Of a stretch of 64,000 bases of DNA, positions 53,782 to 54,786 are shown in pieces; position 1 is the first letter of the stretch; every line of letters starts with the position of its first letter. A program made the translations under genes and the position numbers. The notes beneath the pieces were generated by a model that saw only the letters and a program-made list of their open reading frames with translations, was not told the DNA's origin and did no database searches. The stretch is taken from sequence record PV636258.1, one strand, 5' to 3'. The DNA is from a phage.

Positions 53782-53789
53782 TATAAATA
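53782..53789 (+). promoter_or_regulatory. T4-type late promoter-like box TATAAATA
   Basis: Exact TATAAATA on plus strand about 35 nt upstream of proposed GTG start at 53824. Confidence 0.3.
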
Positions 53790-53823
53790 TCAACAGATAT
53801 ATTATTTAAATGGAGTCCTCATC

Positions 53824-54765
53824 GTGGAAGACTATCGCAATTTTCTAACGCAACTGCTTCAACGGGGTATTTCCCGCAAGAACAGATTTCGTGTTACAAT
53901 TCCGTTGCCGCCTGGAATATTTGATTCCAATGCGACACTAGCAAATGATGGGAACGCATATCCTTCATCTTCATTCGGCGATTTATTCAAACAAAGCGCC
54001 CGTATTGTAAACGCATTCTTTGGAGGGACAAACCAAACATCTCGTTCCCTGCAAATGATGTGTATGGTCGCATCTTTACCTGGTACAGGGATTGACACTA
54101 CTCCCATGACCAACAACGGCAACCACATTAAAATGCCGAACAACAAGACGAACATTGATCTGGAGTTGTCGTTCCTCCTCGCCAACGATTATTATGAAAA
54201 GTCGGTCATGGACAAATGGAAGAATCTGATATTCGACCCATACACAACCAAGATGGGTTATTATGAAGACTTCGTGACCGATATTTGTATAGAGCAAATG
54301 GATACAGAAGATCAGGTTGTTCATCGCGTTTATGTGACTGAGGCTCACCCCATCAACTTCAGTTCTATAGATCTGGATAAAAGCGCCGCCGATCAATTTA
54401 ATCAGTACAACATTTCCTTTTCTTATAACAAAGTATTATCGGAGACTGAATATGAAACGCGCAGCCTCGCCAGCGATTTTCTTCCTTTGGGTATTACTGA
54501 TGCTCTTGCTTCCGGAGACTGGGAAACCGCTGCGTCAAAAGCCGGACAGCTATATAAAAAGATCAAAGAAGGAAACTTCACAGGTGAAGCCCTGCTGGCT
54601 TATAAGCAACTCGATCAGCTTGTAAACAATCTGGCTGGTATCAGCTTGGCTGATTTCGAAAGGATCTCTATCGGCATCCAGAGGGATATCTTAGGCAATG
54701 ATAACCTGACGGCGTCTGAGAAGAGTAGTTTACTCGGATTGTTACAGGATGTTGTCAAAAACTAA
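53824..54765 (+). CDS. hypothetical protein (start uncertain)
   Basis: ORF 53629-54765 trimmed to GTG 53824 to avoid 140-nt overlap with the convergent minus gene; lone plus-strand gene inside minus-strand block. Confidence 0.4.
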   Translation: MEDYRNFLTQLLQRGISRKNRFRVTIPLPPGIFDSNATLANDGNAYPSSSFGDLFKQSARIVNAFFGGTNQTSRSLQMMCMVASLPGTGIDTTPMTNNGNHIKMPNNKTNIDLELSFLLANDYYEKSVMDKWKNLIFDPYTTKMGYYEDFVTDICIEQMDTEDQVVHRVYVTEAHPINFSSIDLDKSAADQFNQYNISFSYNKVLSETEYETRSLASDFLPLGITDALASGDWETAASKAGQLYKKIKEGNFTGEALLAYKQLDQLVNNLAGISLADFERISIGIQRDILGNDNLTASEKSSLLGLLQDVVKN

Positions 54766-54786
54766 AAAGCCCCCGAAGGGGCTTTA
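54765..54786. terminator. bidirectional intrinsic terminator
   Basis: AAAAAGCCCCCGAAGGGGCTTT between convergent gene ends at 54765 and 54793. Confidence 0.6.

Follow-up and report, generated by a model that had tools for sequence, protein, structure and literature searches.

In bacteriophage T4, gene 54 sits in the hub cluster beside gene 48, and gene 2 is no replication gene, its product being a protein of the virion head. The predicted gene 54 homologue of the Kuttervirus phages differs in its context, in that it stands alone between gp2 and gp32. This arrangement has been described for several phages of the ViI-like group: in AG3 (orf072/073), LIMEstone1 (ORF50), and CBA120, the same gene is found in the order gp2, gp54-like, gp32 ... 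gp33, with the same divergent layout, and AG3 gene 073, next to the gp2 homologue orf072, was named tail tube and baseplate initiator (PMC3121705). The likeness extends to the regulatory sequence, a late promoter having been predicted in the same intergenic region of AG3, where it is listed as a putative late promoter upstream of the gp2 homologue (PMC3121705). The papers on CBA120 and AG3 also describe homologues of gp55, gp33, and gp45, that is, a T4-type late transcription apparatus, which is likewise attributed to ViI (PMC3184105, PMC3121705); according to the CBA120 paper of 2011, no experiment had yet identified the late-promoter sequence used in the ViI group (PMC3184105), and the LIMEstone paper reports structural genes scattered on both strands and predicts 33 late promoters (PMC3296691). 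The gene, its neighbors, and a predicted late promoter in the adjoining spacer had already been published for ViI-like phages in 2011–2012, and we found no material difference between the published locus and the one analyzed here, which comes from a near-identical Kuttervirus: the locus is real, but it is ordinary for ViI-like phages.

The window is a stretch of phage DNA of 64,000 nucleotides (sequence record PV636258.1). When its positions 53000–56000 were compared with the databases by megablast, 268 phage records were returned, with the Salmonella phages vB_SenA_SM5 and Chennai being identical to the window over the whole 3 kb (100%) and many others being more than 99% identical. Chennai is classified as a Kuttervirus, and the window phage can be assigned on its sequence to the same genus (Ackermannviridae, formerly "ViI-like"). 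The gene map was taken from the Chennai record, which is collinear with the window, and the genome-wide counts of TAAATA are based on the complete genome of PhiSH19 (99.8% identical), whereas the orthologue comparison covers nine relatives, with protein identities from 89% down to 30%, the four more distant of which are Vibrio and Pseudomonas phages. A 98.7%-identical copy of the gene also occurs in OR844944.1, a record of 38.5 kb named "Enterococcus phage Efm 3-10", probably a partial assembly that is contaminated or has been assigned to the wrong phage. The gene itself, referred to here as gp54-like, occupies 53824–54765 on the plus strand and encodes a protein of 313 aa (35.0 kDa, pI 4.8).

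The predicted late-promoter box and its core

The gp54-like gene is preceded by the octamer TATAAATA at 53782–53789 on the plus strand, an exact match that ends 34 nt before the GTG start codon and that bears out the late-promoter-like box named in the preliminary description; we read it as the predicted gp55-type (−10-like) late promoter of this gene. The number of such octamers does not exceed chance, with 3 exact copies in the 64-kb window against 1.9 expected (29 of 100 shuffles reach 3), and copies with one mismatch are not enriched in the window either (47 against 59 expected). The signal lies in the position of the box and in a shorter core, with no excess in count. The three exact copies all fall on the plus strand, and the distance from the end of the octamer to the annotated start is 27 nt at 9459, 34 nt at 53824, and 28 nt at 58612; slots located 15–45 nt upstream of a start make up about 2.5% of all position/strand slots. 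The second exact copy (58576–58583, plus strand), which belongs to the same promoter class, ends 28 nt before the baseplate hub gene at 58612, and the third (9424–9431, plus strand) ends 27 nt before an ORF of 55 aa at 9459–9626. This small ORF has an N-terminal hydrophobic segment, matches PHROG 3879 (unknown function), and is labeled "putative membrane protein" in the Chennai record; the product may be a small protein of the membrane that is made late.

Comparison of the orthologous spacers from six enterobacterial genera found TATAAATA in five of the six, the remaining one, from Dickeya phage Kamild, carrying the degenerate form TATAAGTA, and the TAAATA core is present in all four of the distant Vibrio and Pseudomonas relatives as (C/T/G)TAAATA. 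Among the 15 permutations of its letters, TAAATA has the lowest count in PhiSH19 (64 copies, compared with 83–178 for the others), and the same is seen in the window, with 17 copies compared with 38–78 for the permutations; this scarcity suggests selection against stray late-promoter cores. Those copies that do occur are strongly associated with gene starts: 24 of the 64 in PhiSH19 (38%) sit 15–45 nt before a Shine-Dalgarno sequence and a start codon, compared with 2–14% for 14 permuted controls. The genes preceded in this way are mostly virion genes, including those for the tail sheath, the prohead scaffold, the neck, three tailspike or tail proteins, the gp6-like wedge, the baseplate hub, and the gp5-like, gp48-like, and gp2-like proteins, together with the endolysin, helicase, and RuvC-like resolvase genes; the helicase may be the counterpart of UvsW. 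The commonest form of the box in PhiSH19 is aCTAAATAcc, which matches CTAAATAcCcc, one of the two motifs that a genome paper on an Ackermannviridae phage describes as "unique regulatory motifs" (PMC7283392), this being the one phage paper returned by a literature search for the full motif. A CTAAATAccc box of this type is located at 57562–57568 on the minus strand, 24 nt before the gene for the RuvC-like Holliday junction resolvase (start at 57537), so that this recombination and packaging nuclease, too, appears to belong to the late class.

The factors that would read such a promoter are encoded by the phage. A gene for a gp33-like late-transcription co-activator lies on the minus strand at 56170–56412 (PHROG 254, E 4e-23) and carries the annotation "late promoter transcription factor", and the PhiSH19 annotation includes a late sigma factor (gp55, F416_gp081) and a gp45 clamp (F416_gp108). 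A promoter scan called no sigma-70-like site upstream of the gp54-like gene. We also considered by eye a sigma-70 promoter with TATAAA as its −10 element, for which the best −35 candidate at a spacing of 17 nt is TTCTTA (3 of 6 positions); the scan called no site there, and the candidate was rejected. With the T4 late promoter, the box thus shares all 8 bp of TATAAATA and a similar spacing to the start codon, as well as the lack of any detected −35 element and the presence of gp55-, gp33-, and gp45-like proteins; it differs in that the conserved core of the ViI-like phages is shorter (TAAATA) and usually takes the form CTAAATAcc, with C replacing the "TA" prefix of T4, and in that the exact T4 octamer is here a minority variant, with 3 copies per 64 kb.

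A chance AT-rich match in a spacer of 28% GC, with a different promoter, early or middle, serving the gene, has to be weighed against this reading, and we consider it improbable. It would be in line with the counts of exact and one-mismatch copies, neither of which rises above expectation, and with the imperfect box of Kamild, but it agrees poorly with the finding that each of the three exact copies is on the coding strand and 27–34 nt ahead of an annotated start, with the strong link between TAAATA and the starts of mainly virion genes, with the constancy of the box while the spacer around it varies across six genera, and with the failure of the promoter scan to find a sigma-70-like alternative upstream. 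The late promoter at 53782–53789 is therefore well supported as a prediction, because position, conservation, association with gene starts, the gp55/gp33/gp45 set, and the lack of a sigma-70 site all point in the same direction. From these features we infer that the gp54-like gene is expressed late; a literature search for Kuttervirus RNA-seq or late-gene timing returned nothing relevant, and the exact transcription start sites given below are predicted positions.

Identity and reading frame of the product

By profile comparison, the product of the gene is best identified as the homologue, in Kuttervirus, of T4 gp54, a minor component of the baseplate that initiates the tail tube. A profile built from 10 orthologues and compared with the PDB matched gp54 chains first (9UFN_C at E 1.2e-5 and T4 5IV5_W at E 6e-4), with a baseplate subunit of Klebsiella phage KP1 right behind (E 0.004), whereas the gp19 tube proteins followed at E 0.15–0.29 and gp48 gave no match in this search. 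The homology is remote, 5IV5_W being reached at E 0.005 in a phmmer search with the single sequence, and tblastn extends to the annotated gp54 of T4-like Aeromonas phages (1e-6 to 4e-8). Among the domain collections, the Pfam gp19 family matched below its threshold (E 0.0056, 17 bits compared with a cut-off of 28.2), an NCBIfam scan of the protein gave no match, and PF23849, a precomputed domain on homologues, was not matched in the Pfam scan of the window protein. The AlphaFold2 model, computed from an alignment of 20 sequences at 53–89% identity, is of poor quality (pLDDT 49 on average and 50–66 in the core, residues 112–206); searched with Foldseek, this low-confidence model gave 23 matches at E ≤ 1e-3, all 23 of them tail-tube/Hcp folds, headed by the baseplate subunit of KP1 and tail chains of T4, whose alignments cover about 96 residues at about 3.2 Å. 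This outcome is consistent with the tail-tube/Hcp-type beta-barrel core expected of a gp54-like protein, without proving it.

The protein resembles T4 gp54 in length (313 vs 320 aa), in a homologous core with a predicted tube fold (query residues 72–209, aligned to gp54 residues 122–259), in having an orthologue that is a virion protein, and in coexisting with separate gp19-like and gp48-like genes. Apart from the remoteness of the sequence similarity, it differs in that its predicted tube domain is shifted by about 50 residues toward the N-terminus and in that the match stops at query residue 209 (gp54 residue 259), beyond which there is a conserved C-terminal region of about 100 residues that is predicted to be all-helical. 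The gp48-like gene, for the baseplate tail tube cap, is located at 34405–35373 on the plus strand (PHROG 230, E 6e-117), and the gp19-family gene of PhiSH19 (F416_gp126, 177 aa) adjoins the sheath gene. The Limestonevirus orthologue LIMEstone1 ORF50 (35.06 kDa) was detected in virions by mass spectrometry with 7 peptides and 24.5% coverage (PMC3296691); it belongs to an orthologue group that is 88% identical, and the orthologue of the Limestonevirus Dickeya phage Kamild has a computed mass of 35.09 kDa. No Ackermannviridae baseplate structure was among the matches of our profile and sequence searches of the PDB, and it is from the homology to gp54, which makes up the ring between the gp48 ring and the first gp19 ring and is needed for the tube to polymerize, that we infer a position in the baseplate.

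The labels attached to this gene in the databases vary, and include tail tube monomer, tail tube protein, baseplate hub protein, and baseplate tail tube initiator. Several of them imply that the product is the major subunit of the tail tube, i.e., the equivalent of gp19, which we regard as very improbable: beyond the many records labeled "tail tube monomer" or "tail tube protein", the weak Pfam gp19 match (E 0.0056), and the tube/Hcp fold of the predicted core, all of which would suit such a subunit, there is a distinct gp19-family gene of 177 aa, F416_gp126, by the sheath gene; the abundant tail tube band of AG3 is a 19.8-kDa gp19 homologue, gene 073 being the one called initiator (PMC3121705); the profile places gp54 (E 1e-5) far ahead of gp19 (E 0.15–0.29); and 313 aa fits gp54 (320 aa) and not gp19 (163 aa). 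We therefore retain the gp54-like assignment, under which gp54-like tail-tube initiator should replace the labels "tail tube monomer" and "baseplate hub protein". Labeling is uneven elsewhere in the window as well: the gene at 19835–20644 (plus strand) is a "putative tail tube protein" in Chennai, yet its matches are to Hoc-like head decoration families with Ig domains (PHROG 215, E 3e-82), and its LIMEstone counterpart has been named Hoc.

With regard to the reading frame, the longest ORF of the plus strand extends from 53629 to 54765 (378 aa), and the true start is the GTG at 53824. This codon is preceded at a distance of 8 nt by a Shine-Dalgarno sequence, GGAG (53812–53815, plus strand; read from the sequence), a purine-rich counterpart of which is found in all relatives; the nine orthologues, from 89% to 30% identity, share an aligned M-x-D start, with four of them using ATG; and PHROG 3629, "tail tube protein", aligns from residues 1–313 to profile positions 1–313 (E 6e-181). 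The resulting length of 313 aa agrees with the plus-strand ORF of "roughly 310 aa" reported at the outset. That the product should instead be the 378-aa form from the ATG at 53629, which would overlap the gp2-like gene and place TATAAATA inside coding sequence, is hardly credible, for although 77 codons upstream are free of stops and include in-frame ATGs at 53629 and 53668, and this form is annotated in the RefSeq record of PhiSH19 (F416_gp053) and in a cluster representative, P0001, of 379 aa, an in-frame stop 1–11 codons upstream shuts the extension in seven of the nine relatives, the orthologues, those with an ATG included, all start at the aligned M-x-D, the PHROG profile begins at residue 1 of the short form, and GGAG stands 8 nt 5' of the GTG at 53824. 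The extension of the 378/379-aa annotation (53629–53823) overlaps the gp2-like gene on the opposite strand by 141 nt. As it is not kept in relatives, it looks like an over-extended start call, and the 313-aa GTG form should supersede the 378-aa form of some records.

The divergent and convergent neighbors

The gene had been presented as a lone plus-strand gene in a minus-strand block, and this is literally true of the annotation from ~39.3 kb to 58.56 kb (about 19 kb), because all the other annotated genes in this interval are on the minus strand. One of these, at 50084–50758 (minus strand), is called "terminase small subunit" both in RefSeq and in PHROG 800; it contains a P-loop, GSNGSGKST, has a weak thymidylate-kinase PHROG match, and is found among nucleotide-metabolism genes, and a separate small terminase adjoins the large terminase elsewhere in the genome. 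Its label looks doubtful.

Regarded as a late gene nested in an early or middle region, the gp54-like gene is indeed a structural gene behind a T4-type late box, but it is not lone, its gp2-like neighbor being a T4-type virion gene with a box of its own. This divergent partner, a gp2-like DNA end protector gene, lies on the minus strand at 53065–53769 (PHROG 429, E 1e-69), and all nine relatives keep the two genes in this divergent pairing, even where protein identity has fallen to 30%. Its predicted late promoter is the opposed box TTTAAATA (core TAAATA) at 53810–53803 on the minus strand, which ends 33 nt before the ATG at 53769; its plus-strand reading, TATTTAA, is the same in all six genera. 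The 54-bp spacer between the two genes thus contains two opposed TAAATA boxes that are 13–14 bp apart, with intervening bases that vary among the six genera. On these grounds, the unit consists of two predicted late genes that diverge from this spacer.

In T4, late transcription is initiated approximately 6 nt past the box, and with this offset the starts would be located at ~53795 on the plus strand and ~53797 on the minus strand, that is, back-to-back and overlapping, so that the two open complexes would be expected to exclude each other. The spacer might accordingly be seen as a dedicated back-to-back late-promoter module with a set spacing of 13–14 bp between its opposed boxes, which, if true, could couple or balance the expression of a head-completion and a baseplate protein; we hold this to be unlikely. 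The conserved pair of back-to-back boxes is probably just an expression of compact genome design. Two other divergent late-gene junctions in the window (34352–34404 and 58563–58611) contain only one box each. The first of them separates a gp4-like head closure gene (minus strand, start at 34351) from the gp48-like cap gene (plus strand, start at 34405), a second divergence of a head-completion and a baseplate gene, with a CTAAATA on the plus strand and no clear opposed box; in PhiSH19 a GIY-YIG homing endonuclease is inserted at this gp4-like/gp48-like junction, an insertion that the window lacks.

On its other side, the gp54-like gene converges with the gene for the gp32 single-stranded-DNA-binding protein (54793–55824, minus strand; Pfam PF08804, E 3e-66), and the 27-nt gap between the two stop codons is occupied by a GC-rich hairpin, AAAGCCCC-TTCG-GGGGCTTT, at 54766–54785. 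It has an 8-bp stem with 5 GC pairs, a 4-nt loop, and a stability of about −16 to −17 kcal/mol in context, and its position is kept in all nine relatives, although the stem sequences differ. On the minus strand, in the gp32 transcript, the loop is UUCG and the stem is followed by a U-rich tail (TTTTTAGTTTTTG / UUUUUAGUUUUUG), whereas the tail on the plus strand consists of TTT followed by AGCG; in the more distant relatives there are runs of five T on both sides of the hairpin. A terminator scan called the hairpin on the minus strand only, making no plus-strand call at 54766–54785. The bidirectional terminator proposed for this junction is therefore only partly upheld: a conserved hairpin is shared by the two genes, but it is strong only for the gp32 strand, where both the terminator call and the U-rich tail are found, and a proper U-tract is lacking on the plus strand. 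Since the plus-strand U-tract is so short, termination of the gp54-like transcript at the hairpin is uncertain. As for the gp32 gene itself, the best sigma-70-like site of the region, TTAACT-16-TATAAT, lies on the minus strand at 55924–55897 (10 of 12 positions), ~70 nt before the gp32 start, as would fit an early or middle timing of gp32 expression. The main local role of the hairpin is probably that of stopping gp33-gp32 transcription from running antisense through a late gene.

Proposed expression and the place of the locus in the genome

Taken together, these elements allow us to propose a model of the locus that we consider very likely as a whole, namely that of a gp54-homologue gene transcribed late from TATAAATA by way of gp55/gp33/gp45-like factors, with the hairpin at its end. 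Host RNA polymerase carrying the gp55-like sigma factor, aided by the gp33-like co-activator and the gp45-like clamp, would recognize the box at 53782–53789 and initiate ~6 nt downstream of it, near 53795, with translation proceeding from the GGAG/GTG signals. The product would most likely be a short, monocistronic late transcript, which would stop at, or leak past, the hairpin at 54766–54785, while the opposed TAAATA box in the 54-bp spacer would drive the gp2-like gene and the hairpin would chiefly block minus-strand gp33-gp32 transcripts from antisense passage through the gp54-like gene. The protein so produced would act on the central hub, where it would start the polymerization of the tail tube.

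The notion that such a gene constitutes a distinct regulatory island does not hold, as similar small baseplate groups behind boxes of this kind are found among the replication genes at 34405, 58612, and 59922. The gp48-like/gp53-like group at 34.4 kb is a small plus-strand structural island with a CTAAATA box of the same promoter class at 34361–34367 (plus strand), 37 nt before the gp48-like gene at 34405, and the hub/gp5/gp25 group at 58.6–62 kb, also on the plus strand, has boxes at 58576 (for the hub gene at 58612) and 59895 (for the gp5-like gene at 59922).

The significance of the locus beyond annotation hygiene is small. For the family, the wider value may lie in the TAAATA core, which at ~20–42 nt before gene starts provides a sharp annotation signal and could guide the first mapping of transcription starts in the Ackermannviridae.
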